Source of the DNA: Candidatus Dojkabacteria bacterium
GTDB lineage: Bacteria > Patescibacteriota > Dojkabacteria > B142 > JAFGFJ01
NCBI GenBank assembly: GCA_016931155.1
Contig: JAFGFJ010000006.1
Span: 385,419 to 449,418, forward strand
Direction: 5' to 3'
DNA: 64,000 nt
Part shown: in pieces, positions 1 through 53,663 of the stretch
Layout: each line of letters begins with the position of its first letter
How positions within the stretch are numbered: position 1 is the first letter of the stretch
Notes under the pieces: generated by a model
What the model was told of the DNA's origin: nothing
The model's database searches: none
The model's input: only the letters and a program-made list of their open reading frames with translations
Translations under genes and position numbers: made by a program

Positions 1-41
1 TTATATCAATAATCCTTAGGGAACGAAACTAACATCCATTT

Positions 42-7401: not shown

Positions 7402-8958
7402 ATGGGTAATTTTTTCAAAAGACCAAAACCTGTTATGCTCGTCATAATGGACGGTGTTGGGGTTGCACAGCCTGGTCCTGGTAATGCTGTTACATTAGCT
7501 CAGACCCCGAGTCTCAATAAGTATTGGCCGATATATCCGCACGGTTATCTTCATGCTTCAGGGTCGAACGTAGGGCTTCCTCACGGGACTGACGGAAATA
7601 GTGAAGTTGGTCATATAAATATTGGAGCTGGAAAAGTAGTATTTCAGGATCTTCCAAGGATAGATAATGCAATTACAAGTGGAAAGTTTTTTGAAGATCC
7701 TTTTTTAATAAAGGCAGTTAACCAGGTTAAAGAGATGAAAACACGACTGCACTTGATGGGTTGTTTGGGGGGTGGGCAGGTTCATTCTTCTTTGGATCAT
7801 ATCTTTGCACTTCTAAAATTTTGTGCGAATCATGGACTTGATGAAGAAAATGTAGTACTTCATTTGTTTACCGATGGGAGAGACTCTCCCCCGAAAAGTG
7901 CTGCAATATATTTGGAGCAAGTCGAATCAGAAATGCAAAGACTTAAGGTCGGAAAAATTGCATCACTGATAGGGCGTTATTATGCTATGGACAGGGACAA
8001 AAGGTGGGATCGTACACAAAAAGCCTACGATCTAATTGTGTCAGGAAAAGGGAAGAAAATAAGTAAATGGAAAGAAGCGGTTGATGATTCTTACAAGAAT
8101 GGAAAGACAGATGAATACTTTGAGCCATATGTAGTTTATGAGCACGATTTGCCTCTTGCTCATGTAGATGACAATGATGCTGTTATATTTTTTAATTTTA
8201 GACCGGATAGAGCACTTGAGCTCACACAGGCATTTGAGGAAGAGGATTTTTCGGCATGGGAAAAAGAAAAAAGCCCGGATGTGTATTTTGTTGGAATGAC
8301 TGAATATTCGATAGGATTTCCAAAAAATATTACTTTTCCTCCAGAGGATATTGATAATCCCATAGGAAGAGTTGTTTCAGATAATGGTCTTAGACAGCTG
8401 AGAATTGCTGAGTCCGAGAAATTTCCTCATGTAACATATTTTTTTAATGGTGGTAATCAAACTGTTTATCCTGGTGAGGACAGAGTCGAGATACCTTCAG
8501 TAAGGGATGTAGCTACATACGATCAAAAACCTGAGATGAGTATTGAAAAAGTGACAGAGGTGCTGGTTAAAAAAATTGATGAAGACTATTATGACTTTAT
8601 AGTGGTGAACTTTGCGAATGCAGATATGGTTGGGCATACTGGAGTACTTGATGCTGCAATAAAAGCGGTTGAGATCGTTGATCAAAAAACTGGCGTTTTA
8701 ATAGAAAAGGTATTGAGTAAAGATGGAGCTCTTGTTGTGATTGCAGATCATGGGAATGCAGAAGAAATGTTTAATCTCCAGACTGGAGATGTTGACACCA
8801 AACATTCAACCAATCCTGTGCCACTTATGATAATAAAAAATGGTCTTGACGGAAGAGAACTTCCTATAGGAATTTTGGCTGATGTTTCACCAACAATGCT
8901 TGCTCTCATGGGTATTCAAAAACCCGCGGAGATGACTGGAAGAAACCTGCTTGTATGA
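7402..8958 (+). CDS. gpmI: 2,3-bisphosphoglycerate-independent phosphoglycerate mutase
   Basis: VIMDGVG, DGRDSPP and ADHGNAE motifs; 518 aa. Confidence 0.9.
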   Translation: MGNFFKRPKPVMLVIMDGVGVAQPGPGNAVTLAQTPSLNKYWPIYPHGYLHASGSNVGLPHGTDGNSEVGHINIGAGKVVFQDLPRIDNAITSGKFFEDPFLIKAVNQVKEMKTRLHLMGCLGGGQVHSSLDHIFALLKFCANHGLDEENVVLHLFTDGRDSPPKSAAIYLEQVESEMQRLKVGKIASLIGRYYAMDRDKRWDRTQKAYDLIVSGKGKKISKWKEAVDDSYKNGKTDEYFEPYVVYEHDLPLAHVDDNDAVIFFNFRPDRALELTQAFEEEDFSAWEKEKSPDVYFVGMTEYSIGFPKNITFPPEDIDNPIGRVVSDNGLRQLRIAESEKFPHVTYFFNGGNQTVYPGEDRVEIPSVRDVATYDQKPEMSIEKVTEVLVKKIDEDYYDFIVVNFANADMVGHTGVLDAAIKAVEIVDQKTGVLIEKVLSKDGALVVIADHGNAEEMFNLQTGDVDTKHSTNPVPLMIIKNGLDGRELPIGILADVSPTMLALMGIQKPAEMTGRNLLV

Positions 8959-33964: not shown

Positions 33965-35287
33965 TTAGTTTTTCTCAACTTTGTGAGCTTGTGTTTCGTG
34001 TGCATTGAAAAACTCTATTGCCCTGGCAAGCTCGGGGTAATTTTTGGAGTATTCTTCAATTGAAATATCTTGCTTCCATGCAGTACATGCCTGAACAACG
34101 GCTGCTGCTCCTGCTTTTGTTCCATCCGGGTGGCTATGCACTCCTGCTCCCATTGTGATAATGAAATCAGTATGGCCTATAGCCTCAATAAACGGACGGA
34201 GTAGAACGGGATTCATACCCCCTGAAATAATCGGATTTGTTTTTTTTAGATCTCCCCAATCCTGTTCAAAAAAGTGCCCCTTTGTGATTTTTCCAAGAGC
34301 CGAATTGGCTGAGGTCACATCTTCACCTTGTGAACCGGACATTTTTCCGATCCCCGAGGTGCCTGTGTGAATACCTGATGCGCCAGCAAGGCGGGCTAAT
34401 TTTGTAAGCACCAGAACTGAAAAGCCAATGGGGTTTTCTTCACGAGTGAATGCTCCATGTCCTGCTCTATGGAAGTGAAGATAGACATCCGGATAACGTC
34501 TTCTGATTGTTTGAACGGCTGTCCAGCCTGCAGTAATACCGTCTACGAGAAAAGCGTAACTATCCGGTTTCATAATCTTTTGTACATAGTCCGCCCGTTC
34601 AATCATTGTGTCAAAATCTGCGGCAGAAACATTGAAGGAATGAACCTTTGTTTGTCCGGTTTCAGTTTCTGCCTTATCCATGGCTTCCTTTACAAGGTCA
34701 ACTGTTTCAGTGAATGGTGCAAAATCCTGATCTGCCTGAGGTTCATCGTTTTTGACAAAGTCTCCACCGCCAGCCCAGAAGTTGTAGCAGACGTCTGCAT
34801 ATTCGGCGGATTTAAGGCCGATTTTGGGCTTGACGATAGTGCCCAAAATCGGCCTATCATAAGCGTTCAAATACTTCCTCATCTCATCGATCGTATAACT
34901 CGATCCGTCATAGTTTTCTAACATGTCAGGCGGGAACGAAATATCAAGAAGTTTTAGTCCTGCAAGTGAGCTCATTCCAAAGACGTTCCCGGCCAGGAAT
35001 GTAACAATATTTTGGACATTACCTGCGCGATCAAACATCCTCCATGGATATGCTATATATACAAGCCCTTTATCTTCTTCCACTTTATAGACAACTCCTC
35101 CCATTGAATCAGAAAATTCTGTCGCAGTATTTACCTCAATATTTGAGCCGTTTGAAGATTCTGCTGCAATTTCTGAGGCCGCATCAAGAAGGTCTGTTTT
35201 TCCATAGGGTATTACTTTGAAAACTGCAAGCAGGTGGGTTCCTTTTAGTACTTCTTCATTCCCGAGTTGTATGTATTTTTTCTGCAT
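33965..35287 (-). CDS. rbcL: ribulose-1,5-bisphosphate carboxylase large subunit, form III-like
   Basis: GGDFVKNDEPQ active-site motif, KPKIGLK (with the lysine that is carbamylated) and the GGMNP C-terminal loop. At 440 aa with no small-subunit gene nearby it is archaeal/CPR form III-like. Confidence 0.85.
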   Translation of the reverse strand: MQKKYIQLGNEEVLKGTHLLAVFKVIPYGKTDLLDAASEIAAESSNGSNIEVNTATEFSDSMGGVVYKVEEDKGLVYIAYPWRMFDRAGNVQNIVTFLAGNVFGMSSLAGLKLLDISFPPDMLENYDGSSYTIDEMRKYLNAYDRPILGTIVKPKIGLKSAEYADVCYNFWAGGGDFVKNDEPQADQDFAPFTETVDLVKEAMDKAETETGQTKVHSFNVSAADFDTMIERADYVQKIMKPDSYAFLVDGITAGWTAVQTIRRRYPDVYLHFHRAGHGAFTREENPIGFSVLVLTKLARLAGASGIHTGTSGIGKMSGSQGEDVTSANSALGKITKGHFFEQDWGDLKKTNPIISGGMNPVLLRPFIEAIGHTDFIITMGAGVHSHPDGTKAGAAAVVQACTAWKQDISIEEYSKNYPELARAIEFFNAHETQAHKVEKN

Positions 35288-41409: not shown

Positions 41410-42224
41410 ATGAACAGCGAATTGCATAAAACCACTCGTGAGCTTAAAATTCGTGACTACAGTCCCAAAACCATCAATAGTTATATGAATGGTCTCAAGA
41501 ATATTTTTCTTTTAGAATAGTGAACTTAAATCAACTGGATACTGATAATATCAAGGACTTCCTGCTCTACTGCAAAGATAAAAATATTTCAGCCAAAACG
41601 AGAAACCAGTATCTTAATGCAATCAAATTCTACTACTACAAGGTTATTAATGTCAGAGATAGAATAGAAATCAGATCTGCCAAACGAACTAAAAGTCTTC
41701 CTATTGTATTAAATCGATCCGAGATTAAAGAGTTAATAAATGCTACAAATAATCAAAAACACAAATTGTTGCTCTCAGTTGCATATGGAGCTGGTTTAAG
41801 GGTCAGCGAAGTTGTAAGTTTGAAAGTTAAAGATATAAATTTTCAAAACTTGACACTTCATATCAAGCAGTCAAAAGGAGATAAAGACAGAATAACTATT
41901 TTCCCCAATAGCATTATAGATAGTTTAATTGCAATCACTGGTAGTAAAAGTAGAAATGAATACGTTTTCTCAAGCGAAAAAGGTGGGAAACTGACTACAC
42001 GTACTGCACAGAAGGTATTCTCTAATGCACTAAAAAGGTCAGATATTAAAAAAGATGCCTCATTCCATACTCTCAGGCACAGCTTTGCTATACATTTACT
42101 TGAGAATGGAACGGACGTACGTTATGTACAGGAGTTACTTGGGCATCAAAATATAAGGACAACCCAGAGATATACCCACGTTACCAATCCTCAGCTTAGA
42201 AACATTAAGAGTCCTTTAGTTTAG
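41410..42224 (+). pseudogene. tyrosine recombinase/integrase (XerC/D-like) interrupted by a frameshift
   Basis: A 36-codon ORF (ATG at 41410; ...IRDYSPKTINSYMNGLKNIFLLE*) encodes the start of the N-terminal SAM-like domain. The remaining 234 codons (41520-42224; C-terminal R...HxxR...Y catalytic region ending HTLRHSFA...RYTHV) are in another frame. The frames overlap at 41481-41520 across a TTTTTCTTTT run. Confidence 0.65.
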
Positions 42225-42593: not shown

Positions 42594-42683
42594 TGGCGGA
42601 GAGGGCGGGGTTCGAACCCGCGTGGCGCTTTCGCACCGCGTCGCTTTCCAGGCGAGCCCTTTAGACCGCTCAGGCACCTCTCC
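42594..42683 (-). tRNA. tRNA-Ser (anticodon GGA), long variable arm
   Basis: Reverse complement ggagagg...ctGGAaa...gcgggttcgaaccccgc...cctctcc-g-cca. G73 is the discriminator base. The 3' end faces the integrase gene. Confidence 0.75.
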
Positions 42684-44386: not shown

Positions 44387-44821
44387 TTACTTCCCTGCCG
44401 AATCAAGTATTAGATTTACTAAAGAGTCTGCAAATTTATTTTTTTCTCTAGGTATATGAATAAACCTGATGGATTTGAAACTTCCCGAAACGGCATCAAC
44501 TTTCTTCTTTAAAATCTTCATCTTGTCGTCTTTAACTCTGTACTCACCATTCAGCTGCTTAACAATAAGCTCACTGTCCAGAAAGCATTCAATATTTTCT
44601 CCAGCCAGCCTTTCGGCTATTTTCAGTCCAAGGATAAGTGCCTCGTACTCAGCCTGATTGTTTGTTGAGTTACCAAGGTAATCAGCGTCAAACTTCAGTA
44701 GATCATTATTTTCTGCATTAAACACAAAGGCAGCAGCAGAAGCCGGTCCTGGGTTCCCTCTTGCTCCACCATCTGAATATATTTTTAAATCCATATTATA
44801 TTTGTCGTTTATGGAGTACAA
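44387..44821 (-). CDS. rnhA: ribonuclease HI
   Basis: KIYSDGGARGNPGPASAAAFV with the DEDD catalytic arrangement. 144 aa. Confidence 0.8.
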   Translation of the reverse strand: MYSINDKYNMDLKIYSDGGARGNPGPASAAAFVFNAENNDLLKFDADYLGNSTNNQAEYEALILGLKIAERLAGENIECFLDSELIVKQLNGEYRVKDDKMKILKKKVDAVSGSFKSIRFIHIPREKNKFADSLVNLILDSAGK

Positions 44822-44905
44822 AGACCATTTTTAATGGCTTGTATAGATTATAACAAGATGCGACAAATTAAAAGAAAAATTGCTATAATTGCCCACTCAA
44901 ATAAT

Positions 44906-44976
44906 TGCGGGATCGTCTAATGGTAGGACAAGTGCCTCTGAAGCACTCGATCCAGGTTCGAATCCTGGTCCCGCAA
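44906..44976 (+). tRNA. tRNA-Gln (anticodon CTG)
   Basis: tgcggga...ctCTGaa...ccaggttcgaatcctgg-tcccgca-a. No CCA is encoded. A TATAAT box lies at 44884-44889 upstream. Confidence 0.75.
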
Positions 44977-45037
44977 TTCGACTCCTTCCGCTTTGCGGAA
45001 CTCGCTCATTGCAGGCAATATTTGAAAAGTCGAATTT

Positions 45038-45047
45038 GGTTCGAGCC
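45038..45047 (+). repeat. T-loop-like near-palindromic decamer GGTTCGAGCC (copy 1)
   Basis: TTTGGTTCGAGCCAA lies 60 nt after the tRNA-Gln 3' end, and the flanking TTGG/CCAA can extend the hairpin. Confidence 0.6.
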
Positions 45048-45079
45048 AATGATACTAAATATTAGTTCAGCCTAAAAAG

Positions 45080-45649
45080 ATGACCGAAATTTCTAAAAAT
45101 CACCCTACAATTGCTTCCTGCGGTATAGATTGTGGTTTGTGTCCAAGATTTTATACAAAAGGCCGCTCAAGATGCCCAGGCTGTGGTGGTTCAAAATTCT
45201 CGAGCAAACATCCTTCATGTTCAATTCTAACTTGCTGCGTAAAGAAGAACAATTTCGAAGTATGCTCAGAATGCAACCAATTTCCTTGCTCAAAAATGAG
45301 AGATTGGGATAAAGGTGATTCTTTTGTTACTCATAAAGTATCATTGTCAAATTTGAAGTTAATAAAAAACCAGGGTATAGATAAATTTCTAAAACAGCAA
45401 AGAAGACGAATTGAGTTTCTAAAAATGTTTATGAAAAACTTTGATGAAGGACGATCAAAAAGTTTTTATTGTATTTCATGCACTCTTTTACCTATCAATT
45501 CTTTAGAAGAGTCAATAGAATTTAGTAACCAGAAAATAAAAGAAGGGAAAATAAGACACAATGATTTAAAAGCAAGATCAAAAATATTGAGAGAACAGCT
45601 TAAAAAGTTTGCTATAAAAGAGGGTATCGAATTAAAATTAAGAAAATAG
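45080..45649 (+). CDS. Cys-rich DUF3795-like putative metal-binding protein
   Basis: CGIDCGLCPRFY...RCPGCGG...CSILTCC...CSECNQFPC cysteine ladder. Confidence 0.5.
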   Translation: MTEISKNHPTIASCGIDCGLCPRFYTKGRSRCPGCGGSKFSSKHPSCSILTCCVKKNNFEVCSECNQFPCSKMRDWDKGDSFVTHKVSLSNLKLIKNQGIDKFLKQQRRRIEFLKMFMKNFDEGRSKSFYCISCTLLPINSLEESIEFSNQKIKEGKIRHNDLKARSKILREQLKKFAIKEGIELKLRK

Positions 45650-45731
45650 TTTTAATCAGAAGGATCAATCAACCTATCCCAAACGAAACCTTTGGCATAA
45701 TAATCTCAGCGGTGGGATGGACATAGAAAAA

Positions 45732-46004
45732 GGTTCGAACCTTGTCCAATTCCCGCAAGTGTATTTTAAGAAATTTCCACCGCGTGAAAGCATCGATAAT
45801 AAAGGCTAAACAACACTTAGTTTGGTTCGAGCGACAATTTGCCCTATCCCTGTAAATTGACAATATATGATTATACAACAGCAATAAATAAGGTTCGAAT
45901 CCAGATTGCTATCCAGCTTGCACAGAATATATGATTGACCATATAAATATCGGTTCGAGCCGAGTTAATTCAACATATATTTGAGATGACTTTTGGTTCG
46001 AGCC
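45732..46004 (+). repeat. cluster of five GGTTCGA(G/A)C(C/G) decamer copies
   Basis: Copies at 45732 (AAGGTTCGAACCTT, a perfect 14 bp palindrome), 45824 (GGTTCGAGCG), 45892 (GGTTCGAATCC), 45952 (GGTTCGAGCC) and 45995 (TTTTGGTTCGAGCCAAAA hairpin). All are in the same orientation in a 680 bp noncoding stretch. Confidence 0.65.
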
Positions 46005-46013
46005 AAAAATTGC

Positions 46014-46268
46014 TTATCTGTCACTACTTTCTGATGATTCAATAAAATCTTCTAACCATAAATCATACTTATCTCCATATTGTTCTTTCTTTTTACTGTA
46101 GAAATTTTGAATTACTCTACCGAAATTTAATAATCGATAGGCAATTGTCTTTGCTTCTGTTTCAGTTAATTTTCTTTTGTAACGTTTCTCGAAGATTCCG
46201 CAGATCAGGGACAAATATTTTTGTGAAAGGTTTGACATAATATATAAAAAATAAATTATTATTTCCAA
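46014..46268 (-). CDS. small hypothetical protein (84 aa), divergent from the two-gene locus
   Basis: Its start is 63 bp from, and divergent to, the 574 aa gene start. No motif is recognised, so it could be spurious. Confidence 0.3.
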   Translation of the reverse strand: MEIIIYFLYIMSNLSQKYLSLICGIFEKRYKRKLTETEAKTIAYRLLNFGRVIQNFYSKKKEQYGDKYDLWLEDFIESSESSDR

Positions 46269-46331
46269 TATGAATACAAAAGAATATAATTACAAAAGGA
46301 GTAGATAGCTAATAAAATAGATAAAACTAAT

Positions 46332-48056
46332 ATGAACACAATTGAGGATTTAGGTAAAAACAGATCAACACAACATACTATAGGAGAGCTGGCTGTTAAT
46401 ATATTTAGGAGCATTTTAACTACTAATGAGAAAGAAGTAATTTTCACAGAAACTCCTAATCAACACGATTATGGTATCGATGGTCAATTACAAATATTCA
46501 ATGCAACTATTAAAGGGAAGCAACATTCAGGAATTTATTATCATGTTCAGATAAAAGGGGAAGAAGTACTTAAACTTAATAAAGATAAAAGTTACATAAA
46601 GTATCCCTTAAGCCTCAGAGATGCTAGAAGTCTTTTAGAAATTACAAAAATGCCAACTGCATTTATTTTAGTAGATACAACTAGTAGAGAATGTTATTGG
46701 TTTGATCTACAAACAAATGATATGTTTAAACAGAATTACCAGAAAAGCATATCAAAGTATCTTAAAGCTAAGAAGAAAGTAGAAGATCCGTCAATAACTA
46801 TTTCAATTCCCACTGCAAATAAACTTCCTTCAACGTGGGATGAATTACTTAGCTATTTTAAAAATGCCGCAACAAGTCTTAGCAAAAGAGAAAATATTAG
46901 CAGTTTAAAATCTATGTCTTTAGATAAGGCATTACTTGAAATTGATGATTTTGAAGGCACATTGGATTTACCTGGGATGGATAAGATGTATAGAAATGAG
47001 CAAGCACTTCCATATCCGGGAACCATACTTTCTGTTAGCAATTGCAAAGGTAAGGTAATAGACTATGTTCCGGGTAAAAACTGTGATCCCTCGAATATCC
47101 CTAGTGTTAACTTTAAAGTGAAGTTTAAGAAAGACGATCAAAAGATTGATATTTTTCAAGAAGTTATTAAAAAAGGTAACGGCTCAATAACCTTAGAACC
47201 TGAAAATATTGAAGAACTTGTTTCCAAAACAGGTGATAGAGAACTTTTTCAAATATTTGAAAAGTCAAATGTATCCCTCACGATCTCACCCGTGAGATCA
47301 AATATCAGGCAGAATATTATACATATTGGGATACCTGGGAAAAGTGATTCATTAACCCTCAATGTAAATACCTGGAGGGAACGAAATGAGATAGTAATTA
47401 AGAGTAATTCAAATATTCCTCAGCTCGTATCGATAGATGCTAGGTTTGATATCGTAACTAAGCAAGGGAAAATGAATTTTCAAGTGAATACAAGCGAAAT
47501 AACTAGTATAAAAGAAGAAGTTGAGATAACAAATTTCTATAAACAAGTTACAGATTGCTTAGACTTCTATATCGATTATAAAGGAATCAGGAAGAAAGCT
47601 TTCAATATATCGGTTCCAAAACATTTAGGTATAAGTGAAAAATTCATAGAAGTAATAGAAGCACTTAGTTTAATAGAAGAAATTACAAAAGCCTTCATTC
47701 CTTACCCTCTTCCAGATAGAATTACAGTAGCAGACTCATATAATATTATTTGGATACGTGATTTGATTTCTAAAGGTAAAGCAAACAAATCGTTAACTAT
47801 TGATTTTACTCTTGAGTCTGATCCCCCTACTGAAGTCACTGAAGGGAATTATGTCTCATTCAGAGCAAGCCCAGCAGAATTTAATATCTTTGGGAAACCT
47901 TATGTTTTATCCAACTATTTACTCGAAATTCAGGGGAAGATTATTAAATTAGAAAAGAATAAAGGAAAGAAAAATTCCTATAAGATTACAATCGAGAATG
48001 CTGAGCATATATTAAAACTTAGTGAAGAAGAATCAAATGATACAGGGAACAATTAA
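46332..48056 (+). CDS. large hypothetical protein with an N-terminal PD-(D/E)xK nuclease-like (DUF4365/Mrr-like) motif
   Basis: 574 aa. The first ~80 aa contain GELAVNIF...NQHDYGIDGQLQIF...YYHVQIKG, a D...D...(V)QxK restriction-endonuclease-fold signature. The rest has no recognised motif and no P-loop. Confidence 0.6.
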   Translation: MNTIEDLGKNRSTQHTIGELAVNIFRSILTTNEKEVIFTETPNQHDYGIDGQLQIFNATIKGKQHSGIYYHVQIKGEEVLKLNKDKSYIKYPLSLRDARSLLEITKMPTAFILVDTTSRECYWFDLQTNDMFKQNYQKSISKYLKAKKKVEDPSITISIPTANKLPSTWDELLSYFKNAATSLSKRENISSLKSMSLDKALLEIDDFEGTLDLPGMDKMYRNEQALPYPGTILSVSNCKGKVIDYVPGKNCDPSNIPSVNFKVKFKKDDQKIDIFQEVIKKGNGSITLEPENIEELVSKTGDRELFQIFEKSNVSLTISPVRSNIRQNIIHIGIPGKSDSLTLNVNTWRERNEIVIKSNSNIPQLVSIDARFDIVTKQGKMNFQVNTSEITSIKEEVEITNFYKQVTDCLDFYIDYKGIRKKAFNISVPKHLGISEKFIEVIEALSLIEEITKAFIPYPLPDRITVADSYNIIWIRDLISKGKANKSLTIDFTLESDPPTEVTEGNYVSFRASPAEFNIFGKPYVLSNYLLEIQGKIIKLEKNKGKKNSYKITIENAEHILKLSEEESNDTGNN

Positions 48057-50448
48057 TATAAAATCCAGACCAATTAAACTGGCTTTTCTAATAAAGGCTA
48101 ATAGTCAAAGTTCTCTCAGAAAGGCTATCCAAATTAATTCTGTTCTTTGGGGAGGGATGTTTAATCCTATTATTCCAGTATACAAAAATCTAAGAAAACA
48201 TCTTAAGGAGCCGTACTTTAATAAGCCAAGTGCGCGCGAATTTGTTGAAGGGTGTATAGATAATTTTGATCCCGACTTTATTGTAGTTGTTGATAAGTGT
48301 GATGTTAGCAATATAAAGTTAGGAAACAGAAAAGTTATCTCAGATCTAGAGCTAATTAAAGAATTGGATCAAGGTGAATTTGAATGGGGGGTAGGTATTT
48401 ATGATATTTTGCATCATTTATTAAAAACTGAGTTAAAGTACAAAAGACGTAAACCTCTAGAAATATTGTTCCCACAACTAAATGGAATAGGCTATACAAA
48501 GTTATTCTTAGAATCAGTTTTTGGTAAATTGCCAAAGCCAGTTGAAGATAGTATCCGAAATGACTGGAGTGAAGCACTAGAAGCAAAATTCCCTAAATAT
48601 AACTTGTCTGATTACGTTAAGTATCGATCTGACGCTCTGTTCACAAGACGGCTAACTAACTTGTATTTTGAGACAGACAACCCAGGTAGGAGATTTCGAG
48701 AAAACATTATCTTTCTGATGGATATAGGTAAGTTTATTGATATTGTCGATTATTGGAATCTTAGAGCTCTTGGACTAAATGTGCTTCCTGTCCCAATCCA
48801 ATTAAATAAGGATAAATCCACAATAACTCTTGCAGAGGAATTCATTAAGGATAATTACAATAAATATAAAAACCATTATGGCGAAATGTATACGCATGTG
48901 ACTATACAGATAAGTAGAAGCTTGCAACCCGAACAAAGTAAGAATTTTGCCAGTCAGCTCACGTATGTCAAAGGTACTGGGAATGGCATTACTGTAAGTA
49001 ATGCATTCCCAAGAATTTGGGATGCTTGGGCTAGAGATAAGGATGGAGCCGAATCATGCACTTTAGAGGCTGAAGAAGAAGAATACGATATATCCGAAAG
49101 TTCTGAGAGCTTAAATCTAAAAGGTACTTTCCCGATATTCTTAGATAAGAAGAAATATGGTCAGGGCTTTAGAGTAGCTAATGATTTAAACTTTAGAATC
49201 TACAGCAACAAGGAGCTTTATGCTGAGGTTATTCCAGAAACCGATGTAAAACTTGCAAGAGCAATCGGGCATATAGGAGAGGATGACAATATAAGATTCT
49301 CGCGCAGTGGTATTAAATATTATCCAGATTCAATTGGCAGAAGGTTATATTTTGACTTACCAAAAGGAGAAGATGTATTTAAGGAATGGCTAGAAATTCA
49401 AGGGTATACTAATATTGAAGTTTCTACCCCAGGTAAGATAGCAAAACAAATCTATAAGCATCTTGGTGGTATGAGATATCTTGGACTATTGAGTACACTC
49501 GGAATCATAGGGTTTCTCAATGAGATGTCTGAAATAAGAAAAGAATCAAAAGACGGTAAAGAAGCCTATAGAGATAGCAAATGTATGAACATTGAGGAGG
49601 TGAATGAAAAACTCAGCAAGATTGGTGCAAAATTAAAATTTCCATTGTCTGCCCAAAATCTTTTATACAATTTGGTTCAATCAAAGATCATTGAGCTTGG
49701 AGTGGAGATTCAATGTGATATTTGTAGTAAGAATTCTTGGTATGAACTTAAAACATTGGGTCAAAAAATAAAATGTTCTAAATGTTTTGGTGAATTTGAA
49801 ATCCCAGCATACAATCCTACAAAACTACTTAGTTGGGCTTATAAGACTATTGGACCTTTTAGCCTTCCACAACAAGCGGATGGAGCGTATACGGTTTTGT
49901 TAACATATAGATTCTTTTCTCAGCTTTTGGATGGGCTAACTACACCGCTTATGAGCTTTGCTGGAGAAAAAGACGGTAAGCCATTTGAAGCAGATTTAGG
50001 CTTATTTTTTAGAAGTTCTAAATACAGGATAGAAAGTAATGATGTTGTATTCGCAGAGTGTAAGACTGGAAATGACTTTAAACAAAGGGATATTGATAAA
50101 ATGGTTTCGCTAGGGAAAGATTTTTCAAAAGGTATATTAGTTTTCGCAACACTTAAAGAATCTTTATCTGATGAGGAAATAAAAATGCTTAAGGTCGTAG
50201 TAGAGAGAAATAGAAAGAGGTGGCGGACAAAGAAAACATATAATTACATTGTAATCCTAACTGCAACAGAACTACTTTCTGACTGGCATCCAGAACAAGT
50301 ATGGAAAGATAAGGGAGGTTTTCGCCAAAAATTTGCTCATCATTATAGTGAGAATGAGGAATTATGGGATGCTACTGTCCAAATTTATCTTGGAGTTGAT
50401 TCTAGAGATGAGTGGTTACATCAATACCTCTCTAAAAAAAGTAAATAA
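48022..50448 (+). CDS. large hypothetical protein with a C-terminal zinc ribbon plus PD-(D/E)xK-like motif
   Basis: 808 aa. A GTG start at 48022 (or ATG at 48037) overlaps the upstream stop by 35 or 20 nt. CDICSKN...CSKC is a four-Cys zinc ribbon, followed by EADLGLFF...VVFAECK (D...ExK). Confidence 0.6.
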   Translation: MKKNQMIQGTINIKSRPIKLAFLIKANSQSSLRKAIQINSVLWGGMFNPIIPVYKNLRKHLKEPYFNKPSAREFVEGCIDNFDPDFIVVVDKCDVSNIKLGNRKVISDLELIKELDQGEFEWGVGIYDILHHLLKTELKYKRRKPLEILFPQLNGIGYTKLFLESVFGKLPKPVEDSIRNDWSEALEAKFPKYNLSDYVKYRSDALFTRRLTNLYFETDNPGRRFRENIIFLMDIGKFIDIVDYWNLRALGLNVLPVPIQLNKDKSTITLAEEFIKDNYNKYKNHYGEMYTHVTIQISRSLQPEQSKNFASQLTYVKGTGNGITVSNAFPRIWDAWARDKDGAESCTLEAEEEEYDISESSESLNLKGTFPIFLDKKKYGQGFRVANDLNFRIYSNKELYAEVIPETDVKLARAIGHIGEDDNIRFSRSGIKYYPDSIGRRLYFDLPKGEDVFKEWLEIQGYTNIEVSTPGKIAKQIYKHLGGMRYLGLLSTLGIIGFLNEMSEIRKESKDGKEAYRDSKCMNIEEVNEKLSKIGAKLKFPLSAQNLLYNLVQSKIIELGVEIQCDICSKNSWYELKTLGQKIKCSKCFGEFEIPAYNPTKLLSWAYKTIGPFSLPQQADGAYTVLLTYRFFSQLLDGLTTPLMSFAGEKDGKPFEADLGLFFRSSKYRIESNDVVFAECKTGNDFKQRDIDKMVSLGKDFSKGILVFATLKESLSDEEIKMLKVVVERNRKRWRTKKTYNYIVILTATELLSDWHPEQVWKDKGGFRQKFAHHYSENEELWDATVQIYLGVDSRDEWLHQYLSKKSK

Positions 50449-50496
50449 AAATATTCAGACTATTAATTAATATTTAACGATTGATAGTATCTTCCT

Positions 50497-50506
50497 GGTT
50501 CGAGCG
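50497..50506 (+). repeat. GGTTCGAGCG decamer copy downstream of the two-gene locus
   Basis: CCTGGTTCGAGCGATGCC lies 49 nt after the stop of the 808 aa gene. Confidence 0.55.
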
Positions 50507-50919
50507 ATGCCAACTCCACTTAAAATGAAATTAAACGGAAATTCTATTTTTTAAAATATTTTTTACGCAAATATCAATACTTTTCAGTATTATTATCATG
50601 CCGTATGGATGTAAAACATTATTAAATAAGAGTTTCTTCATAATCTATGTTGGAATAATGAAATTTGTTTTAACTGAAAATAATTTCTGATCAAAATACT
50701 CTGCCCAATTGAAAGAAAGCCTTGGTATTCGTATAATAGTGAAGGGATTGAGGTGGAAAAAGTTAACCATTTTGTTCAGCTCCCCCAACCACGAAAAGAA
50801 AGGGTAGTGATTCAAAATTGTCAGTTGCACAAAATTCTAAGTAAATGGGAGTGATTCAAAATTGGCATATGGCAAAGATCTAAATATATAAGTGTTATTA
50901 TAAATAATCGCTTCCTATA

Positions 50920-52197
50920 ATGATTAGATGTATTACAAATACCCTGAGAACAATATTTGTTGGTAAAGAACAAAATTTTACTTTCAGGAAGGTTGATCCA
51001 TCTAGCTTTACAATTCCAATGGTTTCGAAAACAAATTTATATATTCACATACCATTTTGCAAGAGCATGTGTCCTTATTGTCCCTATAATCGAGTCAGTT
51101 ACAACAAAGAGCAAATTACTTCATATATAAAATCGTTGTTGAGAGAAATTGAAAAATATTCAGATAAATTGGGCAAAATAGAAATTGGGTCGGTTTACAT
51201 TGGGGGTGGGACACCAACTAATGCGATTGATGAACTTGGAATTATTATTAAAACAATAAAAGAGAAGTTCATTATCATTGGTGATATTGCAATTGAGACG
51301 ACAATTGCTGATATAAAGCCTGATATTATAAGGAAAATGGAATCATATGGCATAAATATGATTAGTGTTGGTGTTCAAAGTTTTGATAATAAATATTTAG
51401 AATTTCTTGGCAGAAATTATCGTTCTGAAGCAATCAAACCAGCAATTACTTTATTAAAAAAATCGAGCATAAAAAACATTAATATTGATTTAATGTTTGC
51501 ACTACCAGAACAAACACAAGCGGAATTATCTAGTGATCTAAAAAATTTTATTAGCCTGCAAGTTGACCAAGTAACAACTTATCCATTATTCACTTTCCCA
51601 TATTCAGACGTTGCTGATTATATAAAGGTTTCAAAATTAAAAACTCCAAATATTTTTATAAGAAGAAAGTATTATAAATTTATTCATGACTATCTATCAA
51701 AAAGGGGTTATCAGATGTCTTCTGTATGGAGTTTTAATAAAACTGACAGTCAGTATAATAAGCGGTATTCTTCAGTTACCCGAGAGAACTATATGGGTCT
51801 GGGTGCTGGTTCAGCTTCAAGGTTTGAAAACACTTTTTATTTTAACACCTTTTCTATTCCTGAATATGAGAGTAGACTTTCACAAAATCGTCTTCCAATT
51901 GCAATTAATATGAACATTACTCCTTCTTTATCAAAGTATTATTGGTTCTATTGGAGACTTTACGATACAGAATTTAATCAACAGGACATTAAGAAGTTGA
52001 AAGATTATAAAATAAACACATTAATAAAACTATTTCATTTGTTGGGATTTTCCAAAAGAAGTGGAGAAATAGTGAGCCTAACTGAGAGGGGTTCCTTTTG
52101 GATTCATTTGGCACAAAACTATTTTATGCTTGATTACATTAATAAGGTTTGGAGCGTCATGAAAAATGAGCCATTTCCTGAAAAAATAACAATCTAG
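50920..52197 (+). CDS. radical SAM protein, HemN/HemW-like (coproporphyrinogen III oxidase family)
   Basis: CKSMCPYCPY (CxxxCxxC) motif and the GGGTP motif. 425 aa. Confidence 0.7.
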   Translation: MIRCITNTLRTIFVGKEQNFTFRKVDPSSFTIPMVSKTNLYIHIPFCKSMCPYCPYNRVSYNKEQITSYIKSLLREIEKYSDKLGKIEIGSVYIGGGTPTNAIDELGIIIKTIKEKFIIIGDIAIETTIADIKPDIIRKMESYGINMISVGVQSFDNKYLEFLGRNYRSEAIKPAITLLKKSSIKNINIDLMFALPEQTQAELSSDLKNFISLQVDQVTTYPLFTFPYSDVADYIKVSKLKTPNIFIRRKYYKFIHDYLSKRGYQMSSVWSFNKTDSQYNKRYSSVTRENYMGLGAGSASRFENTFYFNTFSIPEYESRLSQNRLPIAINMNITPSLSKYYWFYWRLYDTEFNQQDIKKLKDYKINTLIKLFHLLGFSKRSGEIVSLTERGSFWIHLAQNYFMLDYINKVWSVMKNEPFPEKITI

Positions 52198-52481
52198 TAT
52201 CGAAATATATTTGATCATGTTTGCAGATACTCCCTCGAGTCTCCAAAAGTCAATTTCCTGTTGAAAGAAGGTTTTGGTATGCGTATACTTGTAGATGGAT
52301 ATAGAGAGGAGGTGTTTTTTTATTGTGTTTAGTGTCAGCAGCTTTAGAAAATAAGAAAGCGAGAGAGTCTCTATCCAGAATTGGTGAGAATGTCGATGCC
52401 GGTTTAGAATTGGAAGAAGAATTCAGCTTTTTCCGAAATCTTTTACCAAGTTTAAGTAATTGTTATTTTATCTACACGAGC

Positions 52482-53663
52482 ATGGAATCGTTTAATAAAT
52501 ACAAAACATTAATACTTCTTTTTCTTTGTGCATGGCTTGTTCTGGTAATTACCATATATACAGGCAGTGAAAGTTTCTACAAGAATCTTCCCAAAGAAAA
52601 TCCTGACACGGAATTTGTTGAGGGAGATCCAGAGTATACTGGAGAGTTCTATCTGGGAAAAGTTGTTGAGGTAATTGAGGAGGGTGTTGATGAAGAGATT
52701 AATCAAGGGTATCAGCTGCTAAGAATAGAGCTGTTGTCCGGTGATAGAGCAGGAGAAGAAATTGAAATACCAAATGAAGCATTATTGGATGTAAAAGATG
52801 GGAGGATGGTTGAGGTAGGAGAGAAGGTTATTGTTAACAGGAATGCTTCACAACTGGAGTCAAACTATGTAATAACAGAGAAGTATAGGCTTGATGCTCT
52901 CATTTTGATTGGTCTTCTTTTTGTCTTGTTTGTCATTGCTACTTCCGGTTATAAAGGTCTTGGTTCTGTTTTTGGTCTTATCTTCACGGTGGTGGTTCTT
53001 GTTAAATTTGTTGTTCCCCAGATACTTGAAGGAAAGAATCCATTGATTATCTGTATTGCTGGAGCTCTTATTATAACTACCGTATCAATTTATCTGGCTC
53101 ATGGTTTTTCAAGAAAGACATCTTTGGCGGTTTTGAGTACTTTGATAACAGTAACTGTTTCAGCAGTGCTGGCTTTTCTATTTGTTGATGCGACAAAGCT
53201 TTTCGGATTGGGGAGCGAGGAATCATATTTTCTAAAATTTGCTCAGGGGGAATCCATTGATCTTCGTGGTCTTTTACTTGGAGGAATAGTTTTCGGTGCA
53301 CTAGGTGTTCTTGATGATGTGACAACAGCTCAGACTGCATCTATATATGAAATAAAAATAGCCAATCCGATGCTTGAGTTTGGAGAACTATACAGAAGAG
53401 GTTTGTCTATAGGTAGAGAGCATATCGCTTCTCTAATAAATACTCTTGCTCTTGCATATATTGGTTCATCATTCCCGGTTTTACTCCTTTTTACTTTGAA
53501 TAAATTTGAGCCAATTTGGACGAGTTTGAATGATGAATTTATTGCAGAGGAAATAGTAAGGACTTTAATAGGAAGTTCTGCTCTCGTCTTTGCGGTTCCA
53601 ATTTCAACATATATTGCTGCTAAGTTCTTAAAAGTTAAAAACGAAATACCCCGCTCACACTAG
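52482..53663 (+). CDS. YibE/F-like multi-pass membrane protein
   Basis: Start re-set to MESFNKYK. N-terminal TM, an ~110 aa extracytoplasmic domain, then 6-7 TM helices. Confidence 0.4.
   Translation: MESFNKYKTLILLFLCAWLVLVITIYTGSESFYKNLPKENPDTEFVEGDPEYTGEFYLGKVVEVIEEGVDEEINQGYQLLRIELLSGDRAGEEIEIPNEALLDVKDGRMVEVGEKVIVNRNASQLESNYVITEKYRLDALILIGLLFVLFVIATSGYKGLGSVFGLIFTVVVLVKFVVPQILEGKNPLIICIAGALIITTVSIYLAHGFSRKTSLAVLSTLITVTVSAVLAFLFVDATKLFGLGSEESYFLKFAQGESIDLRGLLLGGIVFGALGVLDDVTTAQTASIYEIKIANPMLEFGELYRRGLSIGREHIASLINTLALAYIGSSFPVLLLFTLNKFEPIWTSLNDEFIAEEIVRTLIGSSALVFAVPISTYIAAKFLKVKNEIPRSH

Follow-up and report, generated by a model that had tools for sequence, protein, structure and literature searches.

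Co-oriented repeats derived from the tRNA-Gln T-arm at a variable insertion hotspot in a Candidatus Dojkabacteria genome

The window analysed here is a 64,000-nucleotide stretch of a Candidatus Dojkabacteria genome (contig JAFGFJ010000006.1, positions 385,419 to 449,418), and the subject of this work is a set of seven decamers, GGTTCGAGC followed by C or G or close variants thereof, that lie downstream of its tRNA-Gln(CTG) gene. Read from left to right, the locus comprises LCP (−), RNase H (−), tRNA-Gln (+), decamer copy 1 (+) and a DUF3795 gene (+), followed by copies 2–6 (+), a small open reading frame (ORF) (−), the genes of a DUF4365 protein (+) and of an 808-aa protein (+), and copy 7 (+). 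A radical-SAM gene (+) and YibE_F (+) complete the arrangement, and beyond them lie DSBA, a response regulator and enolase (+). All seven copies are non-coding, share the + strand and the orientation of tRNA-Gln, and fall inside 5.5 kb. A first-pass annotation made from the sequence alone had reported seven copies in the same orientation, together with a perfect 14-bp palindrome around the copy at 45732, and both observations are borne out by the following features:

44905..44977, + strand: resident tRNA-Gln(CTG) (ARAGORN; Rfam RF00005, 66.2 bits)
44978..52481, no strand: inserted block of ~7.5 kb between tRNA-Gln and the conserved YibE_F start, absent in the relative L186
45038..45047, + strand: copy 1, GGTTCGAGCC, with the DUF3795 start codon 42 nt further downstream
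45731..45758, + strand: copy 2 (decamer at 45732), GGTTCGAACC, within the perfect 14-bp palindrome AAGGTTCGAACCTT
45824..45833, + strand: copy 3, (T)GGTTCGAGCG(A), 12-mer TGGTTCGAGCGA
45892..45902, + strand: copy 4, GGTTCGAATCC
45952..45961, + strand: copy 5, GGTTCGAGCC
45995..46004, + strand: copy 6, GGTTCGAGCC, within the 18-bp near-palindrome TTTTGGTTCGAGCCAAAA; the small minus-strand ORF has its stop codon 10 nt away
50497..50506, + strand: copy 7, (T)GGTTCGAGCG(A), 49 nt beyond the 808-aa stop codon

When up to one mismatch is allowed, the window contains 10 matches to the motif where 1.12 ± 1.03 would be expected, a count that no dinucleotide shuffle out of 100 attains. The matches outside 45038–50506 are true tRNA T-arms, belonging to tRNA-Leu (4146) and tRNA-Ser (42609, counted on both strands), and the other 58 kb of the window hold no copy except in real tRNAs. 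The string GGTTCGAGC[CG] does not occur in 33 unrelated control loci drawn from around homologues of the radical-SAM gene, nor does it occur outside tRNAs in the corresponding loci of Dojkabacteria relatives. A test for a dispersed family resembling repetitive extragenic palindromes (REP), which would have many intergenic copies genome-wide, covered the other 58 kb of the window and the relatives' loci and returned 0 non-tRNA copies there. Within the inserted block, a two-mismatch scan recovers no extra copies above background, so that the family is made up of seven sharply defined members.

Copies 2–6 are packed into a 364-bp intergenic stretch between the 3′ ends of two convergent ORFs, with spacings of 92 bp (45732 to 45824) and then 68, 60, and 43 bp. 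In a motif-anchored comparison the flanks of the copies are mutually unrelated, except for the units that follow 45824 and 45892 (flank similarity z = 3.35), the first of these two units being a diverged duplicate of the second; at least this adjacent pair arose by local duplication. The identical 12-mer TGGTTCGAGCGA is common to copies 3 and 7. Copy 4 runs into a 12-bp tandem, ATCCAGATTGCT x1.9, at 45899–45921, and this mini-repeat is all that TRF detects, no array-wide tandem period being found. Immediately 5′ of copy 1 (45017–45035) lies a 19-mer, AATATTTGAAAAGTCGAAT, that recurs with 18/19 identity at 47252–47270 inside the DUF4365 gene, a recurrence that may be due to chance in AT-rich DNA. 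A dif-like resemblance of AATATATGATT stretches was also considered, and was dropped as low-complexity AT-rich similarity without support.

The decamer is T-arm DNA of tRNA-Gln in several allelic forms, an identification that rests on an exact decamer in the closest relative, on alignments to the T-arm alleles of several relatives, and on the acceptor tail of copy 2. The T-arm of the resident tRNA-Gln reads CCAGGTTCGAATCCTGG, that of L187 reads cttGGTTCGAGTCCaag, and that of L186, the closest relative, reads ctaGGTTCGAGCCCtag and contains GGTTCGAGCC exactly; GGTTCGAATCC is present in the tRNA-Gln T-arms of both the window and L190. The motif had initially been described as matching no tRNA of the window exactly. 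This holds for GGTTCGAGCC only, whereas GGTTCGAATCC is found in the T-arms of tRNA-Gln (44955) and tRNA-Cys, and GGTTCGAACC in that of tRNA-Ser.

The alignments to four tRNA-Gln 3′ halves took each copy together with the 12 nt before it and the 40 nt after it. The best fit of 45038, 45952, 45995, 45824, and 50497 is the L187 T-arm, including bases of the variable loop, and for three of these five copies the match also covers the 3′ strand of the T-stem; 45732 and 45892 instead agree with the resident allele. When the tRNA halves were slid along the whole block, all seven copies ranked among the best matches; their scores of 19–24 lie at or above the maxima of a null drawn from 37 kb of the window, which were 17–21 across queries and 19 for the L187 query. 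The context of copy 1, AAT-TTGGTTCGAG-CCAA, aligns to L187 AATCTTGGTTCGAGTCCAA (score 24 against the null maximum of 19), AGGTTCGAATCC at copy 4 agrees with the resident tRNA-Gln T-arm at 12/12 positions, and the context of copy 7, TCCTGGTTCGAG, matches L187 TCTTGGTTCGAG. The context of copy 5, AATATCGGTTCGAG-CCGAGT, aligns to L187 AATCTTGGTTCGAGTCCAAGT with a compensated stem in which TC/GA replaces TT/AA, and relative to the L187 T-arm the same loop nucleotide is missing from all three GGTTCGAGCC copies. Copy 2 extends furthest: the stretch AGGTTCGAA-CCTTGTCC[AATTC]CCGCAA corresponds to the T-arm and the acceptor 3′ strand of tRNA-Gln, AGGTTCGAATCCTGGTCCCGCAA, with a 1-nt deletion, one substitution, and a short insertion. 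Its full alignment scores 26 against a shuffle mean of 13.4, with 0/1000 shuffles as good, and the acceptor tail CCCGCAA taken alone has p ~0.002. The alignment of the copies to tRNA-Gln T-arm alleles continues past the decamer.

On their 5′ side the copies show no similarity to tRNA-Gln. The Rfam tRNA model, run over 44800–51000 with E-values up to 10, recovers tRNA-Gln only and no other cloverleaf, and the copies were for this reason rejected as candidate tRNA genes or pseudogenes (RF00005). Among the six tRNAs of the window, tRNA-Gln alone lacks an encoded 3′ CCA; tRNA-Gln encodes CCA in L186 and L190, but not in L187. Right after the gene, at 44988–45002, lies a perfect 6-bp hairpin, TTCCGC-ttt-GCGGAA, preceded by TTCGACTCCT, a 9/10 match to the T-loop and 3′ stem of tRNA-Gln, TTCGAATCCT; this element may be one more scar or the terminator of the tRNA.

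The syntenic loci of relatives were found through homologues of the LCP protein. In L186 (LCP 66% identical) the order is LCP, RNase H, tRNA-Gln, 8 bp, and the ATG of YibE_F, which supplies the empty site that the first-pass annotation had proposed to look for. The YibE_F protein of the window is 66% identical to that of L186 from residue 54 of the long window ORF, and the true start is for this reason placed at the ATG at 52482. The ancestral order thus has tRNA-Gln directly abutting YibE_F, and the window carries a ~7.5 kb hotspot insertion next to tRNA-Gln. Both L187–L189 (64% identical) and L190–L191 (46% identical) carry different genes beside tRNA-Gln, which makes the site a variable hotspot. 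GC content is 0.28–0.35 inside the block and 0.37–0.44 in its flanks.

Two further observations concern the same site. In L187, at ~7830–7960 on the minus strand, three copies of CACCACTT and a shorter fourth (CCACTT) lie in direct orientation between tRNA-Gln and a 172-aa gene, forming a different short-repeat array at the same hotspot. A public Logan contig of the same organism (L001) starts at window position 45019, 42 nt after tRNA-Gln and 19 nt before copy 1; the sample from which it comes holds at least one other Dojkabacteria genome (L242), and the assembly break may reflect strain heterogeneity at the hotspot.

The genes carried by the block, and the one recombinase gene found near it, are the following:

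41410..42224, + strand: tyrosine recombinase, split, outside the block (Pfam PF00589, E = 2.7e-44; PHROG integrase)
45080..45649, + strand: DUF3795 Cys-rich protein gene, bracketed by copies 1 and 2 (Pfam PF12675, E = 9.5e-8)
46014..46268, − strand: small ORF encoding 84 aa (called as 74 aa in a public contig), without a match to any family, uncertain as a real gene
46332..48056, + strand: 574-aa protein with N-terminal DUF4365, a restriction-endonuclease fold (Pfam PF14280, E = 3.9e-15)
48022..50448, + strand: 808-aa protein with no recognised domain and with homologues in defence islands
50920..52197, + strand: radical-SAM (HemN-like) gene, the most distal cargo (Pfam PF04055)

The 574-aa protein matches PADLOC PDC-M02A and Aga_REase through its N-terminal domain only, and its gene is cargo of the defence type. 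Homologues of the 808-aa protein form a widespread family that lacks annotation (267 matches at ~40% identity in many phyla). Its members sit in restriction-modification and BREX-like defence islands: in L192, L193, and L195 they are found in a type I restriction-modification operon between hsdM and hsdS, beside SNF2/DUF1156/DUF499, and beside a type ISP enzyme. A DUF4365 partner is not conserved in other genomes. The C-terminal D...ECK stretch of the 808-aa protein reads like a PD-(D/E)xK nuclease motif, and comparison of both this protein and the DUF4365 protein with solved structures gave no match. The best matches of the radical-SAM gene are 60–64% identical and come from other phyla (Desulfuromonadaceae and metagenome-assembled genomes of Bacillota). 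Given the neighbourhoods of the 808-aa homologues, the kin of the radical-SAM gene, and the low GC, the cargo is typical accessory and defence DNA. Elsewhere, the 33 loci around homologues of the radical-SAM gene are free of the decamer, and so are the surroundings of 808-aa homologues; the motif consequently belongs to the site rather than to the cargo. Upstream of the radical-SAM gene, two 25-nt direct repeats (50799–50823 and 50843–50867), 88% identical, 44 bp apart, and sharing AGTGATTCAAAATTG, are a candidate regulatory site for that gene.

Several copies of the motif have dyad symmetry, and its dyad form can be written as NNNGGTTCGAGCCNNN. In four of the seven copies (45038, 45732, 45952, and 45995) the dyad extends at least 2 pairs past the decamer (p ~7e-4), spanning 14–18 bp and using different bases in each case (ttt/aat, aa/tt, tc/ga, and tttt/aaaa). 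The local hairpins described in the first-pass annotation are hence real at these four copies, although the geometry, TTTTGG-TTCGAG-CCAAAA, implies a loop of 6 nt (TTCGAG or TTCGAA) rather than 7, and no convincing hairpin exists at 45824, 45892, and 50497. Copy 2 sits in a 47-nt hairpin (45711–45757, fold z = −2.76), and the array as a whole folds better than its shuffles on the + strand (z = −3.86), but not on the − strand (z = −0.61). This good + strand fold is largely the product of near-palindromic copies pairing with each other. Searches of Rfam at gathering and permissive thresholds return tRNAs only and no other RNA family, and a terminator scan detects no terminator-like sites. A structured RNA family was rejected on the lack of an Rfam match and on the inconsistency of the hairpins between copies.

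Co-oriented, T-arm-derived repeats lie at or near the boundaries of the cargo genes, and we consider, with moderate confidence, that they are relic scars of the tRNA-Gln T-arm at an integration hotspot and not parts of a functioning system. Tyrosine integrases classically cross over in the T-loop with its dyad-symmetric stem. Under the relic-scar model, the cargo (the DUF3795 gene, the DUF4365 gene with the 808-aa gene, and the radical-SAM gene) would have arrived in several events through T-arm-anchored recombination, each of which would have left one more T-arm core, in the orientation of the tRNA and with new flanks. Copies that arrived with different DNA are expected to have unrelated flanks, as is observed for all but one adjacent pair, and the presence of T-arm variants corresponding to the tRNA-Gln alleles of different relatives suggests different donors. 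Decay would later have stripped away the integrase genes and most of the acceptor tails, and some copies in the 364-bp intergenic array would have multiplied through small local duplications; the copies seen today would most likely be inert.

The signature of a tRNA gene accompanied by a displaced fragment of it, the use of T-loop and T-stem crossover sub-sites, and the existence of tandem islands have been described for tRNA-gene islands formed by tyrosine integrases (Islander, PMC4383910; Williams 2002, NAR 30:866, as cited therein), and decayed islands of Prochlorococcus show scattered partial tRNAs and lost integrases (bioRxiv 10.1101/2020.12.28.424599). Furthermore, four unrelated metagenome loci (L062, L065, L174, and L185) show the fresh form of the same signature, in which the T-arm and tail of a tRNA gene are repeated right behind it. 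The Dojkabacteria block resembles islands of the Islander type in having an intact tRNA gene (tRNA-Gln) at one end, seven co-oriented fragments of the same tRNA downstream of it, on the correct side, an involvement of the T-loop/T-stem region, which is a recognised crossover sub-site, foreign cargo in several blocks in series, and an empty site in a relative (L186). It differs from them in lacking a tyrosine integrase inside the island, in that six of the seven fragments are internal T-arm pieces of 10–20 nt rather than end fragments (45731–45758 being the exception), and in the crowding of five fragments into 364 bp with none at the distal end of the block. Islander filters would reject the block, since they require an integrase and end fragments.

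The tycheposon islands of Prochlorococcus (bioRxiv 10.1101/2020.12.28.424599) are similar in that successive integrations at one tRNA push older elements inward, in that degenerate elements leave partial tRNAs and cargo without an integrase, and in that defence and niche genes are carried by a small, streamlined host genome. Here, in contrast, the phylum is Patescibacteria, of the candidate phyla radiation (CPR), no integrase or replication module of the tycheposon type is seen, and the fragments are much shorter and confined to the T-arm.

A likeness to the attC arrays of integrons is also apparent, in promoterless-looking cassettes of one to few genes set between short imperfect palindromes, in a conserved core with variable stems and a single orientation, and in the defence cargo known from such arrays. 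The attC sites of integrons measure 57–141 bp and are built of R″, L″, L′, and R′ boxes, with an R′ core of GTTRRRY. The sites described here span only 14–18 bp, the core GTTCGAG departs from that consensus by a C at its first R, the array is anchored at a tRNA gene, and no IntI integrase or attI adjoins it. The absence of IntI and the misfit of the core led us to reject an integron cassette array. The dyad symmetry with differing stems fits T-arms and recombinase core sites alike.

Several observations weigh against relic scars. The classic model predicts the 3′ strand of the T-stem and an acceptor tail on every displaced copy, yet only 45732 has a tail, and the other six copies show no similarity 3′ of the core (p = 0.19–1.0 against tRNA-Gln alleles). 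Five copies lie within 364 bp without cargo between them, a packing that simple excision cannot yield, and no gradient of decay is seen in the form of copies with 2 or 3 mismatches. The distal junction beside YibE_F, where the oldest fragment should lie, has no tRNA-like fragment, and neither a motif copy nor a tRNA fragment is found beyond the radical-SAM gene. The absence of an encoded CCA from tRNA-Gln could mean that the gene or its end was replaced by incoming DNA, but this evidence is ambiguous because the whole tRNA, and not just its 3′ end, differs from that of L186. The 6-nt loop common to the three GGTTCGAGCC copies is one base short of a T-loop, and the stems of the four dyad copies differ and are mutually compensated; together, the shared loop and the compensated stems suggest common descent with the dyad maintained, which would hint at constraint.

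No integrase was detected by Pfam, PADLOC, or PHROG among the five ORFs tested in 44978–52481, and the recombinase gene at 41410–42224, the only one found near the array, is outside the block and split. It lies ~370 bp beyond the 3′ end of tRNA-Ser (42594–42683, −) and consists of a 36-aa ORF ending at a TAG (41518–41520) and a 234-aa ORF in another frame, and this split across two frames makes it probably a pseudogene. A donor element (attP) was not identified in viral contigs, where the 15-mer TTTGGTTCGAGCCAA gave 44 single, unrelated matches with no integrase of the local type adjoining. Scanning for two decamers 25–55 bp apart found no analogous array among the loci listed, 31 from viral contigs and at least 120 from metagenome contigs; nearly all of the listed matches are high-GC coding tandem repeats (with periods that are multiples of 3 or 15) or a tRNA with a duplicated 3′ end. 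The proposal of the first-pass annotation that the copies are remnants of att sites from serial integration is hence upheld as regards T-arm identity, one acceptor tail, the empty site, and the variable cargo, and falls short as regards the integrase, missing from the block, the acceptor tail, missing from six of seven copies, and the one pair that was locally duplicated.

To the left of the split recombinase lie the small accessory genes Peptidase_S51, methyltransferase, DUF7670, NUDIX, GrpB, and LprI, and L186 and L187 have other genes at the tRNA-Ser position, so that the tRNA-Ser region looks like a second, decayed island. Further left, at 33965–35287 (−), the window encodes a homologue of the RuBisCO large subunit (PF00016, E = 1.6e-98).

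The foremost alternative, which we nonetheless regard as unlikely, is local amplification, in which a single T-arm pseudo-site was multiplied by slippage or unequal crossing-over while the cargo came by unrelated routes, such as homologous recombination in flanking genes, leaving copies that are inert and mark no integration. The diverged duplicate units at 45824 and 45892, the 12-bp tandem at 45899–45921, and the clustering of five copies in a block without an integrase are all in keeping with this process, and the loop deletion shared by the three GGTTCGAGCC copies relative to L187 points to their common descent. Amplification is harder to reconcile with the unrelated flanks of all but that one pair, which imply that most copies are not parts of longer duplicated units, or with the location of 45038 and 50497 at cargo boundaries ~0.7 and 4.5 kb from the cluster. 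Moreover, different copies match different tRNA-Gln alleles.

It is less probable still, and in our judgement doubtful, that the copies are functional cis-elements, be they operators of a dimeric regulator, processing or stabilising hairpins, or live sites for a recombinase encoded elsewhere. The sharply conserved core without decayed intermediates, the compensated stems that extend the dyad in four of the seven copies, and the strand-specific fold speak for such a function, and the G/A change at position 8, as read from the sequence, keeps U3 paired (G-U or A-U) on the + strand only. Nevertheless, three copies form no hairpin, the + strand fold is largely explained by mutual pairing of near-palindromes, and hairpins with a role in RNA find no counterpart in the Rfam and terminator searches. 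The motif is absent from the homologous systems and, outside tRNAs, from the relatives' loci. Operators, which the first-pass annotation had put forward, are not supported, given that five copies lie between convergent gene ends and not in promoters, that Pfam, PADLOC, and PHROG detect no DNA-binding regulator in the block, and that no copy occurs near homologues of the 808-aa protein or of the radical-SAM gene. In its most elaborate version, likewise of low probability, the dyad NNNGG-TTCGAG-CCNNN would be a live minimal recombination site, at which a recombinase from elsewhere in the genome or from a visiting element shuffles integrase-less cassettes behind tRNA-Gln. The DUF3795 gene, the DUF4365/808-aa defence pair, and the radical-SAM gene would then be cassettes of an integron-like, tRNA-anchored platform, and the 6-nt spacer, the compensated stems, and the sharp core would reflect selection on the site and not chance survival.

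A decayed cluster of tandem tRNA genes, of which only the T-arms can still be recognised, is very improbable. The T-arm-like motif itself, the acceptor-5′-like and acceptor-3′-like arms that surround the T-arm in 45711–45757, and the 92 bp between 45732 and 45824, close to the length of a tRNA, are compatible with such an origin. The remaining spacings (68, 60, and 43 bp), however, are shorter than a tRNA, the sequence 5′ of the copies does not resemble tRNA-Gln, the Rfam tRNA model yields nothing beyond tRNA-Gln, neutral decay would not spare the T-loop alone, and none of the sampled relatives has intact tRNA genes at matching positions. Finally, the first-pass annotation had proposed that the copies are sites by which the nucleases of the island recognise their target or mark self. 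The copies bracket the nuclease genes, and the core contains TCGA and near-palindromes typical of restriction sites. This reading is nonetheless highly improbable, as Pfam reveals no methyltransferase in the block, homologues of the 808-aa protein have no copy of the motif nearby, and a T-arm origin accounts for the sequence without invoking nucleases.

The phenomenon at this locus is one already known, an island hotspot anchored at a tRNA gene and marked by partial-tRNA scars, and it occurs here in a CPR bacterium and in an unusually short form restricted to the T-arm. It provides a clean case in Candidatus Dojkabacteria of a tRNA gene behind which foreign genes, a defence module among them, have landed, and shows that these bacteria, with their streamlined, tiny genomes, acquire accessory genes at tRNA hotspots just like others. 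Short repeats made of the T-arm only can, furthermore, reveal old integration sites that would escape standard island finders, which need both an integrase and an end fragment. Should the sites prove to be active, they would represent a cassette-capture system distinct from integrons.

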